A stretch of DNA of 35,842 nt, taken from Candidatus Cybelea sp. (lineage in GTDB: Bacteria > Vulcanimicrobiota > Vulcanimicrobiia > Vulcanimicrobiales > Vulcanimicrobiaceae). Below the pieces are notes generated by a model. That model saw nothing but the letters and a program-made list of their open reading frames with translations, was not told where the DNA came from and did no database searches. Made by a program: the position numbers and the translations under genes. Numbering within the stretch: the first letter of the stretch is position 1; each line of letters opens with the position of its first letter. Shown piece after piece: positions 14,456 through 35,599 of this stretch. The stretch spans positions 1 through 35,842 of the forward strand of contig DATDIA010000203.1 of assembly GCA_036521295.1 (NCBI GenBank), written 5' to 3'.

Positions 14456-15217
14456 ATGCTCCTAACGATCGACGTCGGCAACACCGAGACGAAACTCGGC
14501 TGTTTTTCAAAGCACGCGCTCAAGCAGACGTGGCGTGTCACGACCGAGTTGCGACGCACGCCCGACGAATACGGCGTCTTCTTCACGCAGCTCTTCGCAA
14601 CGAGCGAGATTAAGACAAGCTCGATTCGCGCGATAGCGATTGCGAGCGTCGTTCCGCAGCTCGACCTAGTCCTCGAAAGCGCCTGCGAGCGGTTCTTCGC
14701 AACGGCGCCTCATTTCTTGAAACCCCAGACGCAGCGCCTGATGAAGGTCGTTACCGAAAACCCCTCGGAGGTTGGCGCCGATCTCATCGCGGCGGCAATC
14801 GGCGGCCGCGCGCGCTTTGGCTCACCGCTCATCGTCGTAAGCTTCGGCACCGCGACCGTTTTCATGGCGATCTCAGCGCGAGGCGAATACCTAGGCGTTG
14901 CCATTGCGCCGGGTATTGCGGTTTCGATCGAGGCGCTGATCGGCCGCACCGCGAAGCTGCCGCAAATCGCGCTCGAGGCACCGGCCCGTGCGATCGGCCG
15001 CAACACGACCGAAGCGCTGCAAAGCGGCATCGTCTACGGCTTTGCCGGGCAAACTGAGGCGATCGTCGCGCGATTGCGCGCGGAGATGGGCGTTGACGCT
15101 AAGGTCGTCGCGACCGGCGGCCTCGCCGAGATCGTCGCCAAGCAGACGCCCGTCATCGAAGCGGTCGACGCGCACCTCAGCTTGGTGGGATTGGAGCTCT
15201 TCCACCGGAAAGTCTAG
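14456..15217 (+). CDS. coaX: Type III pantothenate kinase
   Basis: 253 aa. MLLTIDVGNTETKLG, GADLIAAAIG, SFGTATVF and ATGGLA are present. Confidence 0.92.
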   Translation: MLLTIDVGNTETKLGCFSKHALKQTWRVTTELRRTPDEYGVFFTQLFATSEIKTSSIRAIAIASVVPQLDLVLESACERFFATAPHFLKPQTQRLMKVVTENPSEVGADLIAAAIGGRARFGSPLIVVSFGTATVFMAISARGEYLGVAIAPGIAVSIEALIGRTAKLPQIALEAPARAIGRNTTEALQSGIVYGFAGQTEAIVARLRAEMGVDAKVVATGGLAEIVAKQTPVIEAVDAHLSLVGLELFHRKV

Positions 15218-15221
15218 CGTC

Positions 15222-16220
15222 ATGGCTCCGGCACCTTTGCAGATTGGCCCAATCGAGGTCTGGCCGCCGCTGATTTTGGCGCCGATGTCCGGCGTGACGA
15301 ATCGCACGATGCGCGCGCTCTATCGTCCCTTTGGTCTCGGCCTCACCGTCACCGAGTTCGTTTCGTCCAACGCCTTGAGGTACGGGAGCCGCCGCACGAT
15401 GGAGATGATCGACCAGCACGGCTTGGAACGGCCCGTCTCGACGCAGCTCTGGGGCGACGACCCTGCGACGATGGCACTGGCAGCGAAGGTGGTGCGCGAG
15501 TGCGGTGCCGACATCGTCGACATTAACTTCGGCTGCCCCGCACCGAAGGTAACCAAGACCAACGGCGGATCCGCCTGTCTGCGCGACCCCAAGCGCTGCG
15601 AGGCGATTATGCGCGCCGTCGTTGCCGCCGTCGATTGCCCCGTCACCATGAAGATGCGCTTAGGCTGGAGCAACGACGCGCTCGTCTATCTTGACGTGGC
15701 TCGGCGGGCGCAGCACGCCGGCGTGCAGGCGGTGACGCTGCACGCCCGCACGGCGAAACAATTCTACAAGGGGAACGCCGATTGGGAGCACATCGCGCGC
15801 CTCAAGCGCGCCGTCGACATCCCGGTCATCGGCAACGGCGATCTCGACGATCCTCATCGTGCAATGGAGCGCATGGGTGAAAGCCGCGCCGACGCCATCA
15901 TGCTCGGGCGCGCGACGCTCGGTAATCCATGGCTCATCGCGCAAATTCGAGATCTTATGGAGGGACGCGAGGCGCGCCCGATGCCCACGCCGGCGCAACG
16001 CCTTCGCTTCGCTATCGTCCACTATCGCGCGATGCTTCAAGAGCTGGGCGAAGCGCGCGCCGTCCCGCAGATGCGCAAGCACATCGCGCTCTATCTCAAA
16101 GGCATTTCGGGCGCAGCGATCCTGCGGGAACGCATCATGCACATCGAACGAGGCGACGACGCGATCGGAGTTATCGAAGAGACGATCGCGCGGCTCGACG
16201 CGACGCCGCTTGCAGCGTAA
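15222..16220 (+). CDS. dusB: tRNA-dihydrouridine synthase
   Basis: 332 aa from the ATG at 15222. LILAPMSGVTNRTMRAL, DINFGCPAPKV and LHARTAKQFYKGNADWEHI are present. The track ORF from 14988 overlaps coaX and is Arg/Ser-rich upstream of this Met. Confidence 0.9.
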   Translation: MAPAPLQIGPIEVWPPLILAPMSGVTNRTMRALYRPFGLGLTVTEFVSSNALRYGSRRTMEMIDQHGLERPVSTQLWGDDPATMALAAKVVRECGADIVDINFGCPAPKVTKTNGGSACLRDPKRCEAIMRAVVAAVDCPVTMKMRLGWSNDALVYLDVARRAQHAGVQAVTLHARTAKQFYKGNADWEHIARLKRAVDIPVIGNGDLDDPHRAMERMGESRADAIMLGRATLGNPWLIAQIRDLMEGREARPMPTPAQRLRFAIVHYRAMLQELGEARAVPQMRKHIALYLKGISGAAILRERIMHIERGDDAIGVIEETIARLDATPLAA

Positions 16221-25675: not shown

Positions 25676-26791
25676 CTAATTCAGAGGCGGTTTTCCGCCC
25701 TTATTGCCGCCGTTGTCCGGCGCTTTCGGCGCGGCGCCTTGAGGCCGCGATTTCGATTGTGAGCTGGCGCTCCCACCTTGCGAATGTCCGCCGGATTGCC
25801 CATGCATCGCTTGCGAGTGCATCTGGTTTGGCGGAGGCGATTTGTGCTGCGGATTGGTTGCCGGCGCGTTGTGATGAGGTTGGGTAACCGGCGCCGGGTT
25901 ATGCTTCGGCTGCGACGCAGGCTTCGGTTGTGTGACCGGCTTCGCCTGAGTCGCAGGCTTCGGCTGTGCCTTGGGTTGCGTGACCGGAGCGTTATTCGCG
26001 CCGTTTGAAGTCTTGACGTTCTTCTGCGCGGCTTGCTTATCGGCCGCGGTTACCGGCGCGTAATGTGGAAGCTGCTTCGGATCGTTGTAGGCCTTCTGCG
26101 AAGCCGTAACCGGCGGTCTGCCATGGTTGACGTTCGCATAGAGGTTGCGATCCTGGGCTGCGACACGGGCTTGATTGCGTTGTGCCGTCGTCGGCGGAAT
26201 GGAGTGCTGCCGCGCTGCGATTTGTCCCGAGGTCGGCCTTGCGGATACGCCGCCGCGACCGCCGTTGTAGCTCACGTGACAGTTGTTGCCGCAGTGAACG
26301 CTCTTATTGATGACGCTCTTGTTGACGTAGACGTTGCGCACGACGTTGCGGTTGACGTTCATTACCGCTCCGTTGTACCTGAAGGCGTTGCCGGCCCAGT
26401 AGCCACCGACGAATCCGGCACCGAAGTAGCCGAAGCCGTAGTTGATGCCACCGTAGAACCCGACGCTCGGGCCCCAGTAGCCGGTGTTCCACGCGTAGGC
26501 ACCGTTATAGCCGGCGCCCCAGTAACCCGGGGTCCAATAGACGCCGACTGAGGGTGGCGCCACCCACGTCCCCGGAACCCAGTAGTAGCCGCCGGGTCCC
26601 CAGCCCCAGTATCCAGGGGTCCACTGGTAGTTGGGATAGGGGGCTACCGGCTGTGAATAGACCGGAAGCGGCGGCGGGGGCGCGCCGACGCTAAACCCGA
26701 CTCCGACGCTTAACTGCGCGGGCGCCGTTAGCGGGAGAGCTGCCATAAAAACCGTTAGGATAATTGCGGAGAGCGATCTTGTGATTCGCAC
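25676..26791 (-). CDS. Secreted YXWGXW/WxxGxW-repeat protein with a low-complexity Pro/Gln/Lys-rich tail
   Basis: 371 aa. GTG start with GGAGGA upstream. Signal peptide: MRITRSLSAIILTVFMAALPLTAPA. Aromatic-Gly repeats: YQWTPGYWGWGPGGYYWVPGTWV, VYWTPGYWGAG, NTGYWGP. The C-terminus has PVTQPK-like repeats and a His/Gln/Ser-rich end. Confidence 0.75.
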   Translation of the reverse strand: MRITRSLSAIILTVFMAALPLTAPAQLSVGVGFSVGAPPPPLPVYSQPVAPYPNYQWTPGYWGWGPGGYYWVPGTWVAPPSVGVYWTPGYWGAGYNGAYAWNTGYWGPSVGFYGGINYGFGYFGAGFVGGYWAGNAFRYNGAVMNVNRNVVRNVYVNKSVINKSVHCGNNCHVSYNGGRGGVSARPTSGQIAARQHSIPPTTAQRNQARVAAQDRNLYANVNHGRPPVTASQKAYNDPKQLPHYAPVTAADKQAAQKNVKTSNGANNAPVTQPKAQPKPATQAKPVTQPKPASQPKHNPAPVTQPHHNAPATNPQHKSPPPNQMHSQAMHGQSGGHSQGGSASSQSKSRPQGAAPKAPDNGGNKGGKPPLN

Positions 26792-26984: not shown

Positions 26985-27203
26985 ATGTTCGATGTCGGCG
27001 AGTCTCTGCGTGATGCCTTTACCACGGCTCGCGCGCGTTTACACGACGGGCAAAGGTCGGTAGCCCTAGCCAACTCGGGCATCGGGATCGGCCGCTCCGC
27101 CGATGCGGCGATGGCCCAGACGGCGCAAGCGGCAATCTTTACCGAAGCGCTTCTCGCCGCGGAACGAGCACGCTTTGAGGAGATAAAGGCGGTCACAAAA
27201 TGA
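26985..27203 (+). CDS. Small FlgB-position protein (possible minimal proximal rod protein)
   Basis: 72 aa. It is the first gene of the operon, and its stop overlaps the flgC start (ATGA at 27200-27203). AGGA lies upstream. The MFD start is FlgB-like, but I cannot see the rod N-terminal ANN/TPG motif. The call is mainly positional. Confidence 0.4.
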   Translation: MFDVGESLRDAFTTARARLHDGQRSVALANSGIGIGRSADAAMAQTAQAAIFTEALLAAERARFEEIKAVTK

Positions 27204-27526
27204 ACATCGATATCCTCGATGCGGCCGCCAGCGGGATGGACGCGCAGCGCGCGGCCCTCGACGTGGCGGCCCGTAACGTTGCCGCCGCAGAAGCCGCGGG
27301 CCCGAACGCTGACTACGCACGGATGATTCCCATCTTTCGAATCGACGCCAACGACGATTCGCGCGTCGAATTTACCGGTACGCGCACCGAGGCCGGGACG
27401 AACGTCGACATTCTCACCGAGATGATTGCCGTGATGAATGCCTCGCGTGCGTACGAGTCTGACGCCTCGATCTTCGAGGTCGGCAAGAGACTAGCCGAAA
27501 AAACGATCGACTTGGAGCGGTTGTGA
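27200..27526 (+). CDS. flgC: Flagellar basal-body rod protein FlgC (short form)
   Basis: 108 aa. The N-terminus ILDAAASGMDAQRAALDVAARNVAAAEA resembles IFDIAGSALSAQ..RLNV.A.NLANA. The C-terminus TNVDILTEMIAVMNASRAYESDASIFEVGKRLAEKTIDL matches the rod C-terminal heptad motif. Confidence 0.8.
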   Translation: MNIDILDAAASGMDAQRAALDVAARNVAAAEAAGPNADYARMIPIFRIDANDDSRVEFTGTRTEAGTNVDILTEMIAVMNASRAYESDASIFEVGKRLAEKTIDLERL

Positions 27527-27789
27527 GGGTCGAGCCGCTTATCCCCGACGCTCCGGCGCCCCCGCCGCAACCCAGCGGTGACGCAGCGGCATTTGCGCGC
27601 GCGCTCGATGCACTCGGCGGCGTGCTTGCCGGTGCAGCGCAGGCCGAAGATAATTTCGCATACGGTAGAGGCACGTTGCAAGATGCGATCTACGAACGCG
27701 CGCAGGCGGACGTGGCACTCTCCGTGGCAACGGCGACGGCGCAGCGCATCGCGCAGGCCGCGCAATCCGTGCTTAACATGCAAGTGTAG
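27523..27789 (+). CDS. fliE: Flagellar hook-basal body complex protein FliE
   Basis: 88 aa. FARALDALGG...AEDNFAYGRGTLQDAIYERAQADVALSVATATAQRIAQAAQSVLNMQV, including the characteristic C-terminal MQV. The GTGA start overlaps the flgC stop. Confidence 0.8.
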   Translation: MRVEPLIPDAPAPPPQPSGDAAAFARALDALGGVLAGAAQAEDNFAYGRGTLQDAIYERAQADVALSVATATAQRIAQAAQSVLNMQV

Positions 27790-27791
27790 CC

Positions 27792-29264
27792 ATGAATGGC
27801 GTTGCCCCGCTGCTGACTCGGTGGAATACCTTACCGAGAGCGCCTCGCCTCGTGGTGAGCGCGGCAGTGCTCGCCTTAGTGACCATCGCAGCGGCAGCGG
27901 CAATCGTCGCGCATCCAGTTCGTACGCCGCTCTTTGCCGCTTCACTCCATCCCGAGCAGCTTGCCGAGGTCGAAGAGCGGCTTGCCGCGTGGAACGTTCC
28001 CTTCACGCCTACTGCCGAGAACGTGATCGTAGATACGAGGCGCCGCAACGATCTCTTGCTGCGCCTCTCGCTCGCCGGCGTTCCACATCTGCATCTCGTA
28101 AATAGCGCAGAGGCGCTGGAAAGCATCGGCGTCCTGACCCCGCAAGCCGTCATCGAAGCGCAGACGCGAGCGGGTCTCGGCGGCGACATCGAAGCGGGGT
28201 TGCGCAGTATCGACGGCGTGGATGACGTACGAGTTATCGTTGCGCCGGCAAAGGCACCGGAATTCGCCGACGAAACCACGCACGACGCCTCTGCCTCAGT
28301 GCGGCTGGAGCTTCGCGGCGGCGCGCGGCTTTCGCGCGAAGCGATTGCCGGCATCCGCGCATTTGTCGCGGCAAGCGTCCCCGAACTCCTGCCGGCACGG
28401 GTGACGATTCTCGACGATCGCGGTGTCGCGTTGGGCGACGACACTGCCGGTGCCGACGAGGCCGCCGACCTCCAGCGCTCGCTGCAGTCCGCACTCGATT
28501 CCGCTTTCGGTGACGAAGCGACGATCGTCCGGGTTCGCGCGGAATACGAAGTTGGGCAAACCTCCGAGCACGACGTGCGCCGCGCCCCGATCGCTGTCGC
28601 GGCGATCAGGCGCTTGCGGCGCAGCGAGAGCTACGACGGAGGCGGCAAACGCTATCGCAGAGTCGAAGAAGGCGATGATCGCGGCAGCCAAACGCACGAG
28701 TCGCTCGCGCAAACCCCGGCGGGCGCGCTCAAGCGCCTTTCGACGGCGATCTTCGTCGATCAAAGCCGCGCGCTCGATGTAGCGAAGGTTCGCGAACTCG
28801 CGGGCGCTACGCTCGGCTACGATTCGCGCCGTGGTGACACGCTCGCCGTCGAGGCCGTGGACTTTCACCGAGAGCTCCCGGTACGTAAGGACCCCTGGTG
28901 GCTGCTCTACGGCGCAATCGTGCCGCTCGCACCGGCGCTCATTTTGGCGATCGGGCTCGTCGCTTGCGTGCGGATTGCCGTACCCTCGGTCGCCGCGCTG
29001 GTGCAATCGTTCATCGAGCGCGTCGTCGTCGAGCGCGCCTCGAAAGCCGCCGCGGGTTTTCCGCCGGCGCGTGTGCGCAGTATGCTCGAGCAAGAACCGC
29101 CACATGCCGCGGCGGCAATCATCAGCGCGCTGCCGGCTGCGACCGCCGCGGCAGTCCTGGACCTCTATCCGCCACACGAACGCGAGGCGATCGTTCGCCG
29201 AATGCAGCGGTCTGTGGCACCCCTGCTCTCTGACGCGCACGAGTTGTTGCGTCGTCATGTCTGA
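27792..29264 (+). CDS. fliF: Flagellar MS-ring protein FliF with a FliG-N-like C-terminal cytoplasmic extension
   Basis: 490 aa. N-terminal TM: LVVSAAVLALVTIAAAAAIV. YscJ/FliF region: LAEVEERLAAWNVPFT...IVDTRRRNDLLLRLSLAGVP...DIEAGLRSIDGVDDVRVIVA. Second TM: WWLLYGAIVPLAPALILAIGLVACV. The roughly 105-aa cytoplasmic tail contains HAAAAIISALPAATAAAVLDLYPPHEREAIVRRM. Confidence 0.85.
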   Translation: MNGVAPLLTRWNTLPRAPRLVVSAAVLALVTIAAAAAIVAHPVRTPLFAASLHPEQLAEVEERLAAWNVPFTPTAENVIVDTRRRNDLLLRLSLAGVPHLHLVNSAEALESIGVLTPQAVIEAQTRAGLGGDIEAGLRSIDGVDDVRVIVAPAKAPEFADETTHDASASVRLELRGGARLSREAIAGIRAFVAASVPELLPARVTILDDRGVALGDDTAGADEAADLQRSLQSALDSAFGDEATIVRVRAEYEVGQTSEHDVRRAPIAVAAIRRLRRSESYDGGGKRYRRVEEGDDRGSQTHESLAQTPAGALKRLSTAIFVDQSRALDVAKVRELAGATLGYDSRRGDTLAVEAVDFHRELPVRKDPWWLLYGAIVPLAPALILAIGLVACVRIAVPSVAALVQSFIERVVVERASKAAAGFPPARVRSMLEQEPPHAAAAIISALPAATAAAVLDLYPPHEREAIVRRMQRSVAPLLSDAHELLRRHV

Positions 29265-29727
29265 CAACTTCGTTCCGCTCGCCTCATTCTTGCGTCCCGT
29301 CGCGCAGAAACCGGTGGTGGAACCGCCTCCGCCGGCAGAGGGGCCGACTGCGGACCCGTGCGATGACTATAACGAAACGCTTCGCGCTGCGCGGCGTTTT
29401 CGTGCAGGGCTCAGCGATGCACTCGAAACCGCCGTCGAGCAGATGTTGCCAAAGATCGCGAAGGAGGTGCTCGCACGCGAGCTGCAGCTCGCCGATGCCG
29501 ACGTTGCCGCGATTCTCTCGGCCGCGCTCGATCGGTTCGCCGGCGATACGGTGCTTTGCGTTCGCGCGCACCCTCGCGACTGGGCTGCACTGGCCGGTTT
29601 TGAGCTCGAACGGGTTGCCGATGCTTCGCTACAGCCGGGGGATGTTCGTCTGGACCTTCGTAGTGGCACGATCGATTTGACGCTCGCCGCGCGCCTCGAT
29701 GCAGCTCTGGCGGCGTGTTCGGCGTGA
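29257..29727 (+). CDS. fliH: FliH/SctL-like export ATPase regulator (short)
   Basis: 156 aa from the ATG at 29257, overlapping the fliF stop by 8 nt. FliH-like C-terminal half: MLPKIAKEVLARELQLADADVAAILSAALDRF...VLCVRAHPRDWAAL...VADASLQPGDVRLDLRSGTIDLTLAARLDAAL. It sits immediately upstream of fliI. Confidence 0.65.
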   Translation: MSDNFVPLASFLRPVAQKPVVEPPPPAEGPTADPCDDYNETLRAARRFRAGLSDALETAVEQMLPKIAKEVLARELQLADADVAAILSAALDRFAGDTVLCVRAHPRDWAALAGFELERVADASLQPGDVRLDLRSGTIDLTLAARLDAALAACSA

Positions 29728-30770
29728 ACGCTTCGCAGAGGCTCGCACTCGGCGCTTGCGCGCTCGGACGCGCAATCGACGCGCACGGTTCGCCACTCGA
29801 CTGTGGGCCGCTTTTGCAAGGGCGTAACGTCACATTGGACCTGCGTGCTCCCCGACCCAGCGATCGGGTGCCGATTGCGACCCCGCTGCCGACCGGAATA
29901 CGCGTCGTCGATGGGTTGCTCACCATCGGTCGCGGCGCCCGCATCGGAATTTTCGGCGCACCCGGGGCAGGCAAGACCACCCTGATCGAAGCGGTCGTCG
30001 CGGGCTGCGCTGCCGACGCAATCGTCATCGCACTCGTCGGTGAACGTGGGCGAGAAGCGCAATGCTGGATTGCGCGGCGCGACGATCGGACGACGGTCAT
30101 TTGCGCCACCAGCGATCGGCCGCCGCAGGAGCGGCTTCTCGCGGCACGAGTTGCCGTGGTGCATGCCGGTGCGCTTCGCGAACGCGGATTGCACGTGCTG
30201 CTCGTCATCGATAGCTTGGCACGCTTTGCGTACGCATCGCGCGAGATCGCCGTGGCCGCCGGCGAGAGCGTCGGGCGAGGCGGGTATCCACCGAGCGTCT
30301 TCGCTCATCTGGCTCGACTCGTCGAAGTTTCCGGGGCGCTCCAGAATGGCTCGATCACATTGATCGCGAGCGTCATAAACGATGGGGACGACCGCGATCC
30401 GGTCAGCGAGGGTGCGCGCTCGATTCTGGACGGGCACATCGCGCTTTCGACGCGCCTCGCCGAAGCAGGGCGATTTCCGGCCGTGGACGTACCGGCGAGT
30501 ACGAGCCGAACGATGGAAGCGGTCGTTAATCACTCTCATCTGAGCGCCGCGCGCAAGGTAGCGCGAGCTCTGGCCCTGCTCGACCGTATCGAAGACGCCC
30601 GCGCGCTCGGCATAGATCCGGCCGATCGCGCGGCGCGTATCGCCATTGCCGCCGAGACCCGTCTCGAAGCCTTCCTACGTCAAGGACGCAGCGCCTCCGA
30701 CTACGAGGCCACCTTGTCACAGTTGGCGCAACTCGCAATTCTCTTGGAAGGCGACGGTGGAGATCGTTAG
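29715..30770 (+). CDS. fliI: Flagellar/T3SS export ATPase FliI lacking the N-terminal domain
   Basis: 351 aa. Walker A: GAPGAGKTT. LVGERGREA is present. Walker B: HVLLVIDSLARFA. PPSVF and GSITLIASV...DDRDPVSEGARSILDGHIALS are also present. Alignment from memory to Salmonella FliI starts near residue 100. The upstream sequence is occupied by the fliH-like gene. Confidence 0.88.
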   Translation: MFGVNASQRLALGACALGRAIDAHGSPLDCGPLLQGRNVTLDLRAPRPSDRVPIATPLPTGIRVVDGLLTIGRGARIGIFGAPGAGKTTLIEAVVAGCAADAIVIALVGERGREAQCWIARRDDRTTVICATSDRPPQERLLAARVAVVHAGALRERGLHVLLVIDSLARFAYASREIAVAAGESVGRGGYPPSVFAHLARLVEVSGALQNGSITLIASVINDGDDRDPVSEGARSILDGHIALSTRLAEAGRFPAVDVPASTSRTMEAVVNHSHLSAARKVARALALLDRIEDARALGIDPADRAARIAIAAETRLEAFLRQGRSASDYEATLSQLAQLAILLEGDGGDR

Positions 30771-31326
30771 CAATCTCGGCGCGCTTATGCGGCGGATCGA
30801 ACAAATCGCGCAAGGTCCGCGACTTGACGGCCCAGAGTTCGACGACGCCGTCACGGTTGCGAGCCTCACTGCGCACTCGGCAATCGATTTGGGTTCAGCC
30901 GATTCGCGCTTGGCTATCGATCGCTACGTAAGCACAAGCGCGCAGACCCTCGGCATCGATCCTGCCCTGATCGAGGCGATCATTGCAAACGAATCGGGAT
31001 TCGATCCAAAGGCGACCTCTCGCGCCGGCGCTCGCGGTCTCATGCAACTCATGCCGCAGACGGCCGCAGAGTTCGGTGTTACCGATCCGTACGACGCCGC
31101 GCAGAACATACGAGGCGGTACCCGATACTTTCGCACGCTGCTCGATCGGTTCGGTGATGTCGAGCTGGCCGTGGCTGCATACAACGCGGGGCCGGGTGCA
31201 GTCGAACGTTTCGGCGGCGTGCCGCCCTACGCGGAGACACGCAGCTACGTACGTAAAGTCTTGGCGCATTACCGGGAACTGCGTTCGCGCGAGCGCGTAG
31301 TTCTCAACTCGGCAAACTTGCGATGA
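30757..31326 (+). CDS. SLT-domain lytic transglycosylase embedded in the flagellar operon
   Basis: 189 aa from the GTG at 30757 (GGAAGG upstream), overlapping the fliI stop. The alternative start is ATG 30787. SLT motifs: IIANESGFDPKATSRAGARGLMQLMPQTA, AAYNAGPGAV. Confidence 0.85.
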   Translation: MEIVSNLGALMRRIEQIAQGPRLDGPEFDDAVTVASLTAHSAIDLGSADSRLAIDRYVSTSAQTLGIDPALIEAIIANESGFDPKATSRAGARGLMQLMPQTAAEFGVTDPYDAAQNIRGGTRYFRTLLDRFGDVELAVAAYNAGPGAVERFGGVPPYAETRSYVRKVLAHYRELRSRERVVLNSANLR

Positions 31327-31360: not shown

Positions 31361-31918
31361 ATGATGACGCAGCAGCTCGAAGTTAGTATTCTCGCGGCGC
31401 CGTTGGCAGCGATCGACCGCCGAACACTGTCAGAGGCATGGTATTCGGCGTTGCGCCTGGTGTGCCAACCTCGCCAAACTTTAGCGATTGCACCTCTTGC
31501 GCGATCGCCAGTCGCGCAGCGCCTTCGCGCGTACACACAAAACGTCCAGGAGCGATCCTGGCGCGACCGCGTCGAGATGGGCCGTTTTCACACCTTGCCT
31601 CCCAAACCGAGCACGATGTGCGGCGACGAAGTAAGGGCAAACATCTCAGGCCGGCGCTGCGCGCTCGCGCGCCGGATCGAGCGAGCGTTCGCCCAACCAA
31701 ACTCGCATGCGAAGCGTGCGACATTTTCGATGGGACGCGGAAACGCACGCGTGCATATCATCCTTCAAACGAAAGGAGAATGCACGGCACTGCTCGCGAT
31801 ATGCCGCCCGGAGTTGCGTCTCGTCGTCGCGCGCGCTCTGGCACAAGCTCGTCTCGCGCTAGCGGCGCGCGGCATCGGCATCGAACTGCGCGGGCCGGCA
31901 GTAGCTGAATGTTCCTGA
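31361..31918 (+). CDS. Hypothetical protein with a FliK/SctP-like (hook-length / substrate-switch) C-terminal pattern
   Basis: 185 aa. The C-terminal 60 aa (ARVHIILQTKGECTALLAICRPELRLVVARALAQARLALAARGIGIEL) fit the Flg_hook pattern: beta strand, G, beta strand, then a helix ending L..L...G. It occupies the fliK position of the fla/che order. This call is inference only. Confidence 0.4.
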   Translation: MMTQQLEVSILAAPLAAIDRRTLSEAWYSALRLVCQPRQTLAIAPLARSPVAQRLRAYTQNVQERSWRDRVEMGRFHTLPPKPSTMCGDEVRANISGRRCALARRIERAFAQPNSHAKRATFSMGRGNARVHIILQTKGECTALLAICRPELRLVVARALAQARLALAARGIGIELRGPAVAECS

Positions 31919-32631
31919 GTACAAGCCTGAGCGCCGCACTCGATCGCATCGCCGAGCGAGCCGCCGACGTAAGGCGGGCGTACACACCGGCTGCGGTTCC
32001 GCAGGAAGACGACGTCGCAGCCCCCACAACGATCTCAGACTTTACCCTCGATCCGCTTGCCGTGAGCGCGCCGGACGGCGTCTACTTCGCCACGAACGAC
32101 GATCGGGGAAGAACGACGTACACGCGCGACGGCTCCTTTGCGCTTCGTGGCGGCAAGCTCGTCGATGCTGATGGCCGCCCCGTCTTGGGCGAGCGCAACC
32201 AGTCCGGGATACTCGGCGAGCTTGCCGTCGATCCGGTGGACGAAGTACTGGGACGAATCCACGACGCCGGCATCGAACGCGACGGCAGCTTCGCGTACCG
32301 TCGCGACGTTTTGGATCCACGCAGCGGAAGGCGAGAATCGCAACGAGTCGTTGTTGGACGGATTGCTCTTGCGCGTTTTCCCGCTGGGACGAGACTCGAG
32401 ACGAGTGATGGGAGTCATTGCATCGCCCCTGCGGGTGTCGTCGCGGAGAATGGTTTTGCGACGGAGCGAGGCTTTGCACCGCTGGTGCCGATGCATCGCG
32501 AGCGCAGCCGAGTCGACGTCGATGAAAGTCTCATCCGGCTCAAAGAGGCGTATCTTGCCTTTGACGCGCTGCAGGCAGCCGAGGCCGCCCGAGCGCACCT
32601 CGGCAAGACCGCGATGGATCTCTTGAAATGA
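31909..32631 (+). CDS. Flagellar rod/hook-family protein (FlgE/FlgF/FlgG-like), divergent
   Basis: 240 aa. YTRDGSFALRGGKLVDADGRPVLG matches the conserved rod/hook core (YTR.G.F......L....G..vlG). GRIALARFP is present. The C-terminus SRVDVDESLIRLKEAYLAFDALQAAEAARAHLGKTAMDL matches the SNVD...E...y.a motif. The N-terminal ANxxTxGFK motif is degenerate. Confidence 0.7.
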   Translation: MFLSTSLSAALDRIAERAADVRRAYTPAAVPQEDDVAAPTTISDFTLDPLAVSAPDGVYFATNDDRGRTTYTRDGSFALRGGKLVDADGRPVLGERNQSGILGELAVDPVDEVLGRIHDAGIERDGSFAYRRDVLDPRSGRRESQRVVVGRIALARFPAGTRLETSDGSHCIAPAGVVAENGFATERGFAPLVPMHRERSRVDVDESLIRLKEAYLAFDALQAAEAARAHLGKTAMDLLK

Positions 32632-33422
32632 AAGCACTTGGTTTCGTCTTGCCGTTCAAGGACGGCTCTGAGGCCACGGGAACAAAGCGCGTTCGGCGTG
32701 CCCTCTTTGAGGCGCGCTCCTCGCTGCCCATTAGCGCCGCTTGCGTCGTTGCAAACGGTATACGCGAGACGTTGAGTTCGTTGCTGCGCGGATCCGTTGC
32801 GGTGCGCCTCTTCGAGCCGAGGATCCCAGGGCCGCACGCGTGGTCGGCAATTCTGCGCGATGCGCGACTCTATCGGGTGCGAGGAAACGTTGCGGATGCG
32901 GCCCTTGTCCTGCGAGCGTCCGACGCGGTTGCCCTCGCCGCCGCGCTTTTCGGAGAATCGTCCGGCGCCGTCGAGCGTGCGCTTTCTCCGATTGAATGCG
33001 ACGTCTTGGATCGCATGATCAACGCAATCGCTGCGAACCTCGGTGCGGTCTGCGGAGCGCGCGAAGGCTATCCCGTCGAGCGCGTTGTGGCGGTCGACGG
33101 TCTCGTGACCTACTTCGAGCTCCTGATTGAGGAGCCGGTTTCGTTTCGAATCGGCATCGCGCTCTCGCGCGAACCTGCGTCCGAAACCCGCGGCTCTCTC
33201 GAAGCCAGGCACCTTGCGCAAGTCAGACTCACCGCTCTCGCCACCCTCAACCTAGGCAAGATAGACGCAGCGGCCGTTTCGCGACTCGTCGTTGGTGCGA
33301 CCATTCCGGTAGAGCCCGCAGAATTGCATCGATGTAGCCTTATGGCGCACGGACGCAGACTCGCTCGCGGCAGCTGCGGGGTCCGCGATGGACGCTATGC
33401 ATTCTATGCCGACGCGACGTGA
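32628..33422 (+). CDS. fliM: FliM/SctQ-like switch/sorting-platform protein (short)
   Basis: 264 aa. The middle region has LSPIECDVLDRMINAIAANL. A C-terminal SpoA-like segment is present: LTALATLNLGKIDAAAVSRLVVGATIPVEPAELHRCSLMAHGRRLARGSCGVRDGRYAF. The ATGA start overlaps the preceding gene. It lies immediately upstream of fliN. Confidence 0.6.
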   Translation: MKALGFVLPFKDGSEATGTKRVRRALFEARSSLPISAACVVANGIRETLSSLLRGSVAVRLFEPRIPGPHAWSAILRDARLYRVRGNVADAALVLRASDAVALAAALFGESSGAVERALSPIECDVLDRMINAIAANLGAVCGAREGYPVERVVAVDGLVTYFELLIEEPVSFRIGIALSREPASETRGSLEARHLAQVRLTALATLNLGKIDAAAVSRLVVGATIPVEPAELHRCSLMAHGRRLARGSCGVRDGRYAFYADAT

Positions 33423-33431
33423 ACGCCTACG

Positions 33432-33710
33432 ATGGCGATGAGCTCGAAAGAATCGGCGGAGTTCGAGAATATTGGCTTGCTCATGCACGTGCCGCTGGAT
33501 CTCACGGTCGAGTTGGGAAGCGCTCAGCTTTCGGTGGCCGAGGTATTGAAGCTCGGCACGGGTTCGATCGTCGAACTCGATCGCCCCGTAAATCATCCCG
33601 TCGACCTGCTCGTTAACCGTAGACTGATTGCGCGCGGCGAGATCGTCGCAGTTGCGGAGAGCTTTGCGTTTCGCGTTACCGAGCTGCTTCCGCTCCAGAC
33701 AAGCTCGTAA
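33432..33710 (+). CDS. fliN: Flagellar motor switch protein FliN (SpoA domain only)
   Basis: 92 aa. LLMHVPLDLTVELGSAQLSVAEVLKLGTGSIVELDRPVNHPVDLLVNRRLIARGEIVAVAESFAFRVTEL is a clear SpoA/FliN signature. Confidence 0.88.
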   Translation: MAMSSKESAEFENIGLLMHVPLDLTVELGSAQLSVAEVLKLGTGSIVELDRPVNHPVDLLVNRRLIARGEIVAVAESFAFRVTELLPLQTSS

Positions 33711-33714
33711 CTCT

Positions 33715-34374
33715 ATGCCCACCGATTTCTTCGCGGGCACGGTCGGCCGGCACGCAACGGTGCCACTCGATCTCCTCGTGGCGCTGACGATGCTCTCGGT
33801 CGTGCCGCTTCTGCTGGTCATGTGCACGTCGTTCGTACGAATCGTCGTCGTGCTCTCACTCGTGCGTTCGGCAATCGGCGCCTCAGCGCTTCCGCCCAAC
33901 GCCGTGCTCACGGGGCTCGCACTCGTACTGACTTTGGTCGTCATGGCGCCTACCGCGCAGCGAATCAGACACGACGCTATCGATCCCTATTCGCGAGGCG
34001 CAATTTCCCCTTCGCAGGCGATTCGACGAGCAATCGCGCCGCTTCGCTCGTTCATGCTCCGCCAGACGCGCGCGGCGGATGTGGCGCTATTCGAGCGAGT
34101 CGCACGGCGCGCCCCCGAGCCGGGCCAGCGCGCGCCCATTACCGTCGTGATTCCCGCTTTCGTCGTGGGTGAGCTGCGCAGCGGCTTCGCTATCGGATTT
34201 GCGCTGTATCTGCCGTTCGTCGCCATCGACTTGGCGGTTGCAGCCATGCTGATGGGGCTTGGCATGATGATGCTCAGCCCACCCGTCGTCTCGTTGCCGG
34301 TGAAGCTGCTGCTCTTCGTGATGGTCGACGGCTGGGCGATGCTTTGCGGAGGCGTTGCAGCAAGCTTCCGATAA
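33715..34374 (+). CDS. fliP: Flagellar export-gate protein FliP
   Basis: 219 aa from the ATG at 33715. TSFVRIVVVLSLVRSAIGASALPPNAVLTGLALVLTLVVMAP, AFVVGELRSGFAIGFALYLPFVAIDLAVAAMLMGLGMMMLSP and LLLFVMVDGW are present. Confidence 0.92.
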   Translation: MPTDFFAGTVGRHATVPLDLLVALTMLSVVPLLLVMCTSFVRIVVVLSLVRSAIGASALPPNAVLTGLALVLTLVVMAPTAQRIRHDAIDPYSRGAISPSQAIRRAIAPLRSFMLRQTRAADVALFERVARRAPEPGQRAPITVVIPAFVVGELRSGFAIGFALYLPFVAIDLAVAAMLMGLGMMMLSPPVVSLPVKLLLFVMVDGWAMLCGGVAASFR

Positions 34375-34383
34375 CTCAGATAT

Positions 34384-35295
34384 ATGCGCATCGGAGATGC
34401 CATCGCGACACAGCGGCCGTTTTTCTCGTTCGAGTTCTTCCCACCGAAGGACGACGAGGGTTCCCGCCGCTTGTTTGCCGCAATCGCGGCGTTGCAACCG
34501 CTGCGGCCGGCCTTCGTTTCCATCACCTACGGTGCCGGCGGCTCGACGCGCGCCCGTACGGTTGCGCTCGCTAAAGAAATTCAGCATCAGATCGGTCTGA
34601 CGGTGGTTGCGCACGTCACGTGCATCGGCGCGGATCGGGGCGAGTTGCGAGAACTCTTCGACGACTTGGCGAGGGCCGGCATCGAGAACGTGCTTGCATT
34701 GCGAGGCGACGCCCCGCCGGGTGCGTCGTTCTCACCGACGCCCGGAGGCTTTGCCCACGCCAGCGAGCTGATCGCCATGTTGCGGCGAAACTACGACTTC
34801 TGCATCGGAGCGGCGTGCTATCCCGAAAAGCATCCCGAAGCGGCGACCTTCGAAGACGACCTCCTCCATCTCAAGCTCAAAGCCGAAGCGGGCGCGGATT
34901 TTCTCGTCTCGCAGCTTTTTTTCGACAACGCACACTTCTTCGAATTCGAACGCCGCGCCCGAATCGCCGGTATCGAGCTCCCGATTCTCCCCGGCCTGAT
35001 GCCGATTACAAACTTTGCCCAGATCAAGCGGTTCGTCGCCATGTGCGGCGCGAGCATTCCACCGAAGCTCCTCGTGGAATTGGAGGCGCGCAAGGGCGAC
35101 GATAAGGCGGTCGAAGATCTCGGCGTCGCATATGCGTCGATGCAGGCTCTCGGACTGGTGCAGGGAGGCCTGCCCGGGATTCACTTTTACACGTTGAACC
35201 GCTCGCCCGCGACGCGTGCTATTGTCTCGTCGCTCTTGGCGGCAAGTGCCTGGCGTCCCGCATTGCGAACACGCAGTGCCATAACAACTCGGTAA
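34384..35295 (+). CDS. metF: 5,10-methylenetetrahydrofolate reductase
   Basis: 303 aa. FSFEFFPPK, SITYGAGGSTR, HVTCIG, VLALRGD and DFLVSQLFFD are present. It starts 9 nt after the fliP stop, on the same strand. Confidence 0.9.
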   Translation: MRIGDAIATQRPFFSFEFFPPKDDEGSRRLFAAIAALQPLRPAFVSITYGAGGSTRARTVALAKEIQHQIGLTVVAHVTCIGADRGELRELFDDLARAGIENVLALRGDAPPGASFSPTPGGFAHASELIAMLRRNYDFCIGAACYPEKHPEAATFEDDLLHLKLKAEAGADFLVSQLFFDNAHFFEFERRARIAGIELPILPGLMPITNFAQIKRFVAMCGASIPPKLLVELEARKGDDKAVEDLGVAYASMQALGLVQGGLPGIHFYTLNRSPATRAIVSSLLAASAWRPALRTRSAITTR

Positions 35296-35326: not shown

Positions 35327-35599
35327 GTGGTGGAGATCCTCGACGGATTGCTTCACGACGCGCTCCTTACCACCGCAACGATCGCCTTGCCGATGCTCGG
35401 CGTCGCAGCGCTTGTCGGTACTGCGATTGCCGTCGTCCAAGCGGCGACGCAGGTCCAAGAACAGACCCTGACGCTGCTTCCCAAGATCGTCGCTATTGGA
35501 TTGATGATCGCGTTGTTCGGCGGCCCCGCTATGCACTTGCTCGCTGGACTCTTCGATCGCGCGCTGGCTGCGATTCCTGCGATCGAGACGGGATGGTAA
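35327..35599 (+). CDS. fliQ: Flagellar export-gate protein FliQ
   Basis: 90 aa. IALPMLGVAALVGTAIAVVQAATQVQEQTLTLLPKIVAIGL is present. The GTG start is at 35327 or 35330. Confidence 0.9.
   Translation: MVEILDGLLHDALLTTATIALPMLGVAALVGTAIAVVQAATQVQEQTLTLLPKIVAIGLMIALFGGPAMHLLAGLFDRALAAIPAIETGW

Follow-up and report, generated by a model that had tools for sequence, protein, structure and literature searches.

The FliF protein encoded on contig DATDIA010000203.1 of Candidatus Cybelea sp. (assembly GCA_036521295.1; all 35,842 nt were analysed and are referred to here as the window) ends in a cytoplasmic tail that is FliG-like and matches the middle domain of FliG instead of the N domain. With a probability of roughly 0.68, this tail is a remnant of the FliG middle domain (FliG_M) that docks the FliM/FliN platform of a non-rotating type III export apparatus. 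In canonical FliG, the N domain (FliG_N) binds the FliF C-terminal peptide, the middle ARM domain (ARM_M) binds FliM through an EHPQR patch, and the C-terminal domain (FliG_C) bears the charged torque helix facing MotA. A first-pass annotation of the window had proposed that fliG was reduced to its FliF-binding N domain and fused to FliF. The reduction to one domain and the fusion stand, but the piece retained is FliG_M. The torque domain is indeed gone from the protein and from the whole cluster, while the middle domain, presumed lost along with it, has been kept.

On the basis of its domain content, the 490-residue protein is assigned as a FliF, albeit a divergent one. Pfam detects the ring-building domains YscJ_FliF (83.3 bits, aa 42-214) and YscJ_FliF_C (37.6 bits, aa 214-358) above their cut-offs; by hydropathy, they lie between two transmembrane (TM) segments, TM1 (aa 16-45) and TM2 (aa 368-396). 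The FliF equivalog model TIGR00206 reaches 56.4 bits against a cut-off of 129.75 and aligns only to aa 23-231. The cytoplasmic tail begins directly after TM2 and spans about 94 residues by hydropathy. Its existence and the sequence of its last 65 residues are exactly as first described, although its length had been put at about 105 residues. An exact-sequence look-up of the protein returned no record. Databases already show the Pfam match, and the sources call the protein simply FliF.

Searched alone, the tail matches FliG_M (PF14841) with an E-value of 1.9e-8 and 34.8 bits, above the Pfam cut-off of 25. The match covers positions 1-48 of the 76 in the profile, leaving the last third of the model unmatched. 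FliG_M is also found above its cut-off in every one of 20 homologous FliF tails, whereas FliG_N (PF14842), the domain initially proposed, gives no match at E<=10 in any of the 20. FliG_C (PF01706) is likewise unmatched at E<=10 in the 20 tails, and FliF ends 17 aa past the ARM_M core. ARM_N, ARM_M, and MgtE_N are homologous helical repeats; the MgtE_N family (PF03448), which had been named alongside FliG-N for the tail, reaches 22.9 bits against a cut-off of 25.9 and thus falls below threshold. No CBS or MgtE channel domains were detected in FliF by Pfam scan.

The register of the tail within FliG is consistent across models and structures. The NCBIfam full-length fliG model (TIGR00207) aligns it to positions 115-167 of 338, with equivalog scores of 13.5-17.1 bits against a cut-off of 226.7. 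The best PDB sequence matches of the tail profile are FliG chains, always via the middle domain, namely residues 5-52 of Thermotoga maritima 4fhr_B, residues 13-60 of 1lkv_X, and residues 100-167 of Aquifex aeolicus 3hjl_A. In the last of these, the middle-domain match scores 9.4 bits versus 0.7 bits for the N domain. In the PDB alignments, the "EHPQ" columns of FliG fall on E435-P436-P437-H438 of FliF, and the arginine of the EHPQR motif ("..KRIA" in FliG) falls on the invariant R470. With an Escherichia coli FliG sequence, hhalign returned only a middle-domain alignment, with a register of positions 114-161 at low probability, which is used as a lead only. The tail gave no PDB match to the FliF_C peptide, no profile of that peptide having been used; the tail is accounted for fully by a linker helix and a FliG_M-like domain. 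The window protein is not itself a FliG: of the features that define FliG, it has only the middle domain.

The AlphaFold model of FliF aa 400-490 consists of a long linker helix, three short helices, and a terminal helix (model residues 62-90) whose predicted local distance difference test (pLDDT) score is low at its end. In a Foldseek search of the PDB with this model, FliG or MgtE-N structures take every one of ranks 1-21, and the top matches include FliG_M-only chains crystallised with FliM (4qrm_B, 4fq0_C, and 3soh_B). The model superposes on Helicobacter pylori FliG (3usy_B) with a deviation of 1.4 Å over 50 columns.

No fliG gene separates fliF from fliH, and the overlap of the two genes leaves no room for one: the fliH ATG at 29257 falls inside the end of fliF, giving an 8-nt overlap across the stop (ATGTCTGA). 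The product of the overlapping gene is FliH-like (Pfam FliH, 35.9 bits versus a cut-off of 24.1), so that the fliG slot is empty, just as originally noted. The canonical order flgB-flgC-fliE-fliF-fliG-fliH-fliI is found in the Bacillus fla/che operon and in enteric fliF operons. The window mirrors this order, and the FliG remnant consequently occupies exactly the canonical fliG position. The fusion belongs to a 17-gene cluster running from flgB to flhA, the order of which is essentially unchanged in approximately 38 species-level Eremiobacterota genomes. No fliG, motAB, hook, or flagellin genes lie within 10 kb of the cluster in these genomes, and none lie in the window. A second FliG-like ARM domain is absent from 0.91 Mb of related loci.

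The tail is under strong purifying selection. More than 100 FliF homologues of 488-491 aa share 66-93% identity with the window protein, and their precomputed architecture is the same with few exceptions; among the matches listed, 106 of 120 measure 489-490 aa. The densest run of invariant columns in FliF falls at aa 425-473, and the best-conserved window is aa 436-450, with an identity of 0.98. Conservation of the linker helix is moderate, and among the C-terminal residues P477, L478, D481, L485, and L486 are kept. In pairwise comparisons with eight orthologues, the ratio of nonsynonymous to synonymous substitution rates (dN/dS) is 0.02-0.13 for the tail core versus 0.12-0.21 for the whole of fliF, with synonymous sites near saturation (dS 0.8-1.4).

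When 1.84 billion representative proteins were searched with the tail, only 62 matched. Most of the full-length matches are proteins of 460-505 aa aligned at their C-terminus; the others are shorter fragments and a small number of long repeat proteins. At E<1e-3, none of the matches was a stand-alone FliG (about 330 aa). Some of these fusions, with tails only 38-48% identical to the window tail, retain the pattern EPPH..AA....LP..TA.AVL..Y...ER..I..R. The possibility that misassembly or a frameshift created the fusion was considered and rejected, since the more than 100 homologues come from independent assemblies and have the same length and architecture. A clear frameshift fusion (P0033, a FliF-FliH protein of 643 aa) looks different from the FliF-FliG_M proteins.

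The proposed docking partner is encoded nearby. Sequence profiles detect only a C-terminal SpoA domain in a 264-aa protein of the cluster; this domain aligns to FliM/FliN chains in the PDB, and the FliM equivalog model TIGR01397 scores the protein at 15.8 bits against a cut-off of 219.6. Similarly, hhalign against an E. coli FliM sequence aligned only the C-terminal SpoA part. The AlphaFold model, with pLDDT values of 85-93 over aa 40-180, matches full-length Salmonella FliM in cryo-electron microscopy structures of the C ring (Foldseek E 1e-11) and the FliM middle domains (FliM_M) of FliG-FliM co-crystals (4fq0_A, 4fhr_A, 4qrm_A, and 3soh_A; E 3e-7 to 3e-5). Because of these matches, the 264-aa protein is, as judged from its predicted structure, a genuine FliM. 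Conservation along its sequence is highest at aa 31-45, aa 76-90, and aa 121-135, and the third of these stretches comes just after the invariant F108-G109-E110. In FliG_M-FliM_M structures, the FliG-binding face of FliM is formed by its first helix and a G-G-X-G loop.

Canonical FliM binds phosphorylated CheY through an N-terminal peptide, LSQxEIDxLL. This motif is not visible by eye in the N-terminus of the window FliM (MKALGFVLPFKDGSE). The first 34 residues (32628-32730) have invariant residues of their own (L4, F6, F27, R30, S31, L33, and P34), which suggests a different conserved ligand.

Taken as a mechanism, an ancestral fliF-fliG pair would have fused in frame, with loss of FliG_N and of the C-terminal peptide of FliF, and all of FliG beyond the middle ARM domain would have been deleted. 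Each FliF subunit would then carry one ARM_M with an EHPQR-type patch (E435-P-P-H...R470) just under the membrane, and this patch would dock the middle domain of the cluster FliM. The first-pass annotation had left the docking of FliM as an open question; the fusion reverses that picture, having kept exactly the EHPQR-bearing domain to which FliM docks in canonical FliG. The C-terminal domain of FliM, together with FliN, would form a C-ring-like sorting platform holding FliH and the FliI ATPase beneath the FliPQR/FlhBA export gate. Without FliG_C there would be no torque helix, and the ring would therefore be unable to engage MotA-type stators. The earlier suggestion of an export platform that cannot rotate remains the most plausible outcome. 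The result would be a static, flagellar-type III machine that exports proteins and drives no motility, building at most a rod-like structure from FliE, FlgB, FlgC, the FlgE/F/G-like protein, and the lytic transglycosylase. It is proposed that covalent fusion made FliG_N redundant and that loss of rotation did the same for FliG_C, leaving the FliM-docking part to be kept.

Several observations weigh against this proposal. The sequence matches of the tail to PDB FliG chains are weak (E ~0.3), and the EHPQR motif is changed at two positions (H to P and Q to H), with E, P, and R kept. The AlphaFold tail model is of moderate quality (mean pLDDT 70; core 81-86), and its Foldseek E-values are weak (0.01-0.7), owing to the small size of the domain (about 50 residues). 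We infer, rather than observe, that the tail contacts FliM, that the ring does not rotate, and that the apparatus exports proteins. The 264-aa FliM is presumed to have counterparts of the first helix and the G-G-X-G loop. FliI lacks its N-terminal domain, and considering this together with the gene losses in two divergent clusters (L043 and L045, described below), the cytoplasmic complex may be different or may be decaying in some lineages. The absence of fliG, motAB, and flagellin genes applies to the window and to the 10 kb around the cluster in related genomes, and copies may exist elsewhere in the genomes. The likeness to Vulcanimicrobium alpinum, the only cultured member of the phylum, is one of phylum membership, and its FliF may or may not carry the fusion. 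Lastly, in a paper on the flagella of Chloroflexota, Eremiobacterota are listed with the phyla whose flagellar protein sequences group near those of Chloroflexota; some Eremiobacterota lineages may therefore be flagellated.

The last observations bear on an unlikely alternative in which a full-length FliG from a gene elsewhere assembles together with the fused ARM_M, for instance through the ARM_C-on-ARM_M stacking known between adjacent FliG subunits; the flagellum would then still rotate, with the fused domain serving as an additional anchor and not as a replacement. Both the cluster-level scope of the fliG and motAB search and the Chloroflexota grouping leave room for it, as do the divergent clusters L044 and L046, which retain fliJ, a fliI of full length, additional rod genes, and a sigma factor. 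It is opposed by the lack of any fliG, mot, hook, or flagellin gene within 10 kb in approximately 38 genomes, by a FliM without a recognisable CheY-binding N-terminus, and by the apparent lack of a separate FliF C-terminal peptide after the ARM domain for FliG_N to bind. V. alpinum, moreover, moves by type IV pili and has neither flagella nor a flagellin gene; its gene table lists fliN alone among motor and switch genes (PMC9758169). Quite improbable is a reading of the cluster as a decaying flagellar relic whose FliF tail is a functionless leftover of fliG deletion. Many flagellar genes are missing, FliI is truncated, the lytic transglycosylase is undetected in some genomes, L043 and L045 have lost further genes, and the core proteins score below equivalog cut-offs (with the exception of FliN, 86.7 versus 84.05 bits). 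Decay is nonetheless difficult to reconcile with gene order and intact open reading frames kept over approximately 38 species despite the dS values given above, with a whole-gene dN/dS of at most 0.21, with a tail core that is the most constrained part of FliF, and with a nearly invariant FliF length.

Two further alternatives concern the tail itself. That it is a FliG_N-type, FliF-binding module anchoring an undefined platform would draw on the homology of ARM_N, ARM_M, and MgtE_N and on the near-threshold MgtE_N score, but it leaves FliM docking unexplained and is very improbable: FliG_N is unmatched where FliG_M is found in all 20 tails, in alignments to full-length FliG models and to FliG structures the tail falls on the middle domain (with the 3hjl_A scores given above), and the tail matches the EHPQ...R columns. 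The Ala-rich core at aa 438-459, with a Kyte-Doolittle mean of 1.8, could instead be a weakly hydrophobic stretch that forms a third membrane segment or a re-entrant one, and no soluble ARM domain. This is barely tenable, as the segment holds a proline and an aspartate, agrees column by column with FliG_M, and is modelled as two short ARM-repeat helices with pLDDT values of 81-86, and the structural neighbours of the tail core are soluble FliG and MgtE-N domains.

A FliG_M remnant tethering FliM to FliF has a laboratory counterpart in a Salmonella deletion fusion of FliF to FliG (fliFG d-f), reportedly the work of Francis et al. in 1992. In both proteins, FliF is covalently joined to FliG without FliG_N and, apparently so in the window protein, without the FliF C-terminal peptide, and the FliG middle domain hangs from the MS ring. 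The Salmonella fusion, which arose in one strain, keeps FliG_M and FliG_C and rotates with MotAB. In contrast, the window fusion is natural, is conserved in a phylum-level lineage, ends about 17 aa past the ARM_M core, and has no helix_MC, ARM_C, or torque helix. According to PMC6445934, the Salmonella fusion still assembles the C ring and flagella and exports flagellar proteins, and a FliF-FliG_M link is for that reason workable. By analogy, it is proposed that the window FliF may work like the laboratory deletion fusion minus its motor half. Compared with canonical FliG_M in its complexes (4FHR, 3SOH, 4FQ0, and 4QRM), the tail has the same fold class, the E, P, and R of EHPQ...R, and a FliM encoded nearby, yet it is not part of a stand-alone three-domain protein.

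Among type III secretion systems (T3SS), Abby and Rocha (2012) described an injectisome-origin scenario in which the first step is that genes specific to the flagellum are lost, as well as a reduced "Myxo" T3SS in Myxococcales (PMC3459982). Like the "Myxo" system, the window cluster comprises the T3SS core without motility parts and fits that first step; the argument from conservation over long divergence to function is also the same in both cases. Unlike an injectisome, the cluster keeps fliE, a flgB-like gene, flgC, a FlgE/F/G-type gene, and separate fliM and fliN. Pfam and NCBIfam scans detected no SctC secretin, SctD, SctK, or needle gene in the cluster, and the presence of FliE and FlgC places it outside the non-flagellar T3SS as delimited in PMC3459982. 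The ring link would be made by the FliG remnant in the window cluster and is made by SctD-SctK in the injectisome. In score, the core proteins fall in between the flagellar and the non-flagellar models, with FlhA, FliP, FliQ, and FliR leaning flagellar and FliI and FlhB leaning non-flagellar.

Buchnera carries filament-less basal bodies. Flagellum-like loci also exist in bacteria thought to be flagellum-less, as cited in PMC3459982. The window cluster resembles both in having export and basal-body genes without a filament, presumably for export. To our knowledge, however, these systems retain a separate full-length fliG, and no FliF-FliG_M fusion has been reported for them. Literature searches yielded no description of a T3SS or flagellum in Eremiobacterota, WPS-2, or Vulcanimicrobiota and no natural FliF-FliG fusion.

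Table 1. Features of the fliF-fliG(M) fusion and genes of the surrounding cluster in the window.
Feature	Coordinates	Strand	Evidence or remark
flgB-like	26985-27203	+	assigned by position only
flgC	27200-27526	+	Pfam Flg_bbr_C/Flg_bb_rod, NCBIfam FlgC
fliE	27523-27789	+	Pfam FliE
fliF-fliG(M) fusion gene	27792-29264	+	490-aa open reading frame; Pfam YscJ_FliF, YscJ_FliF_C, FliG_M
FliF TM1, aa 16-45	27837-27926	+	Kyte-Doolittle peak 2.66
FliF periplasmic ring-building domains, aa 42-358	27915-28865	+	Pfam YscJ_FliF, YscJ_FliF_C
FliF TM2, aa 368-396	28893-28979	+	Kyte-Doolittle peak 2.59
FliF juxtamembrane linker helix, aa 400-421	28989-29054	+	AlphaFold helix, model residues 2-22, low pLDDT 50-57
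FliG middle-domain (ARM_M)-like core, aa 424-473	29061-29210	+	with E435-P436-P437-H438 and R470
FliF aa 474-490, continuing the C-terminal helix, with stop codon	29211-29264	+	protein end, no FliG_C
fliH, 156 aa	29257-29727	+	Pfam FliH 35.9 bits; same place in related locus L001
fliI/sctN-type ATPase, 348-351 aa, without N-terminal domain	29715-30770	+	NCBIfam SctN 333 bits, FliI 313 bits
lytic transglycosylase	30787-31326	+	NCBIfam flagellar assembly lytic transglycosylase 101 bits; Pfam SLT on L001 homologue
conserved 185-aa protein	31361-31918	+	no family or PDB match
FlgE/F/G-family protein	31909-32631	+	Pfam LlgE_F_G_D1
fliM, 264 aa	32628-33422	+	FliM middle (CheC-like) domain and SpoA C-domain
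fliN, 92 aa	33432-33710	+	NCBIfam TIGR02480, 86.7 bits (cut-off 84.05)
fliP	33628-34374	+	NCBIfam 226.6 bits
metF	34384-35295	+	Pfam MTHFR on L001 homologue
fliQ	35327-35599	+	NCBIfam 61 bits
fliR start	35596 to window end (35842)	+	start read from sequence

The genes surrounding fliF are listed in Table 1. The canonical FliI N-terminal domain supports hexamer formation and FliH binding. Alignment of the window ATPase to the family models starts near position 76; its Walker A motif (GAPGAGKT) is intact, and FliI has the same short length in about 30 related genomes; the divergent clusters L044 and L046 encode full-length FliI of 428 and 441 aa, respectively. In about 7 of the 38 genomes (L014, L017, L018, L025, L027, L034, and L040), tblastn gave no match for the lytic transglycosylase gene where it normally lies. 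In all of the approximately 38 syntenic genomes, metF lies between fliP and fliQ, and it also follows fliP in the degenerate L045. On related contigs, fliR is followed by flhB and flhA and then by an unrelated phosphoesterase, symporter, secDF, and helicase; in one such genome, flhB (L004:10001-11014) has NPAH in place of the expected autocleavage motif NPTH.

The 185-aa protein has an invariant N-terminus (MMTQQLEVSILAAPLAAIDRR..LSQAWY), a variable middle, and a conserved C-terminus (RATFSMGRG.ARVHV.LQT.G...L.A.CRPE.R..VARAL.QAR.ALAARG). Its gene is placed roughly where fliK sits in fla/che-type operons. A role as a ruler of the T3S4 type is an idea suggested by this position, and neither Pfam nor the PDB gave support for a FliK/SctP-type ruler. 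Just upstream of the cluster on the reverse strand (25676-26791), a 371-aa protein is secreted-looking, rich in Pro, Gly, Tyr, and Trp, and without a Pfam match. Loci L001-L003 have a gene of 384-392 aa, also without a Pfam match, at the same place and on the same strand. The remaining genes in the window are housekeeping genes.

Clusters more distant from that of the window vary in gene content. L045 (5044-10469) keeps the fusion, fliM, fliN, and fliP without fliH, fliI, or the lytic transglycosylase, and RuBisCO and carboxysome genes come after metF. L043 (10001-17005) keeps the same four genes, has no fliI beside fliH, and contains an inserted gene with an aspartic-protease domain. L046, a divergent FliF-FliG_M cluster, includes fliJ, full-length fliI, two extra rod genes, an extracytoplasmic function (ECF)-like sigma factor, and a two-component system. 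In L046 there is also a gene of 311 aa with a CagX/VirB9-type Pfam match (14473-15408), situated between the gene of the uncharacterised protein and the FlgE/F/G-like gene, which may be a recruited envelope part of a type IV secretion system. Two loci with the same cluster and synteny, L011 and L015, are labelled as Acidobacteriota (Candidatus Acidiferrales and Candidatus Acidoferrum), and the names of two FliF homologues bear the labels Binatia and "Babelia". Errors of binning or labelling are the probable cause, and none of this is evidence of transfer.

The cluster and the divergent L043-L046 may tentatively be regarded, at somewhat less than even odds, as a third, independent type III lineage that is non-rotating, rod-bearing, flagellum-derived, and FliG_M-tethered, some members having recruited envelope parts. 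If this is true, the lineage would be a living example of the postulated stage before injectisomes in which motility genes were lost and export was kept.

The fusion offers a natural dissection of FliG in which, with rotation dispensable, the FliF-binding and torque domains are lost and the FliM-docking domain stays under very strong constraint. Since the FliM-docking domain is kept while the other FliG domains are lost, the export-platform role of the C ring would be separable from its motor role. This provides a concrete model for a flagellum losing FliG en route to a pure secretion device, as in the origins of injectisomes, in a lineage with high abundance in soils and a cultured representative, V. 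alpinum. For annotation, Eremiobacterota metagenome-assembled genomes should not be called motile on the strength of the genes of this cluster.

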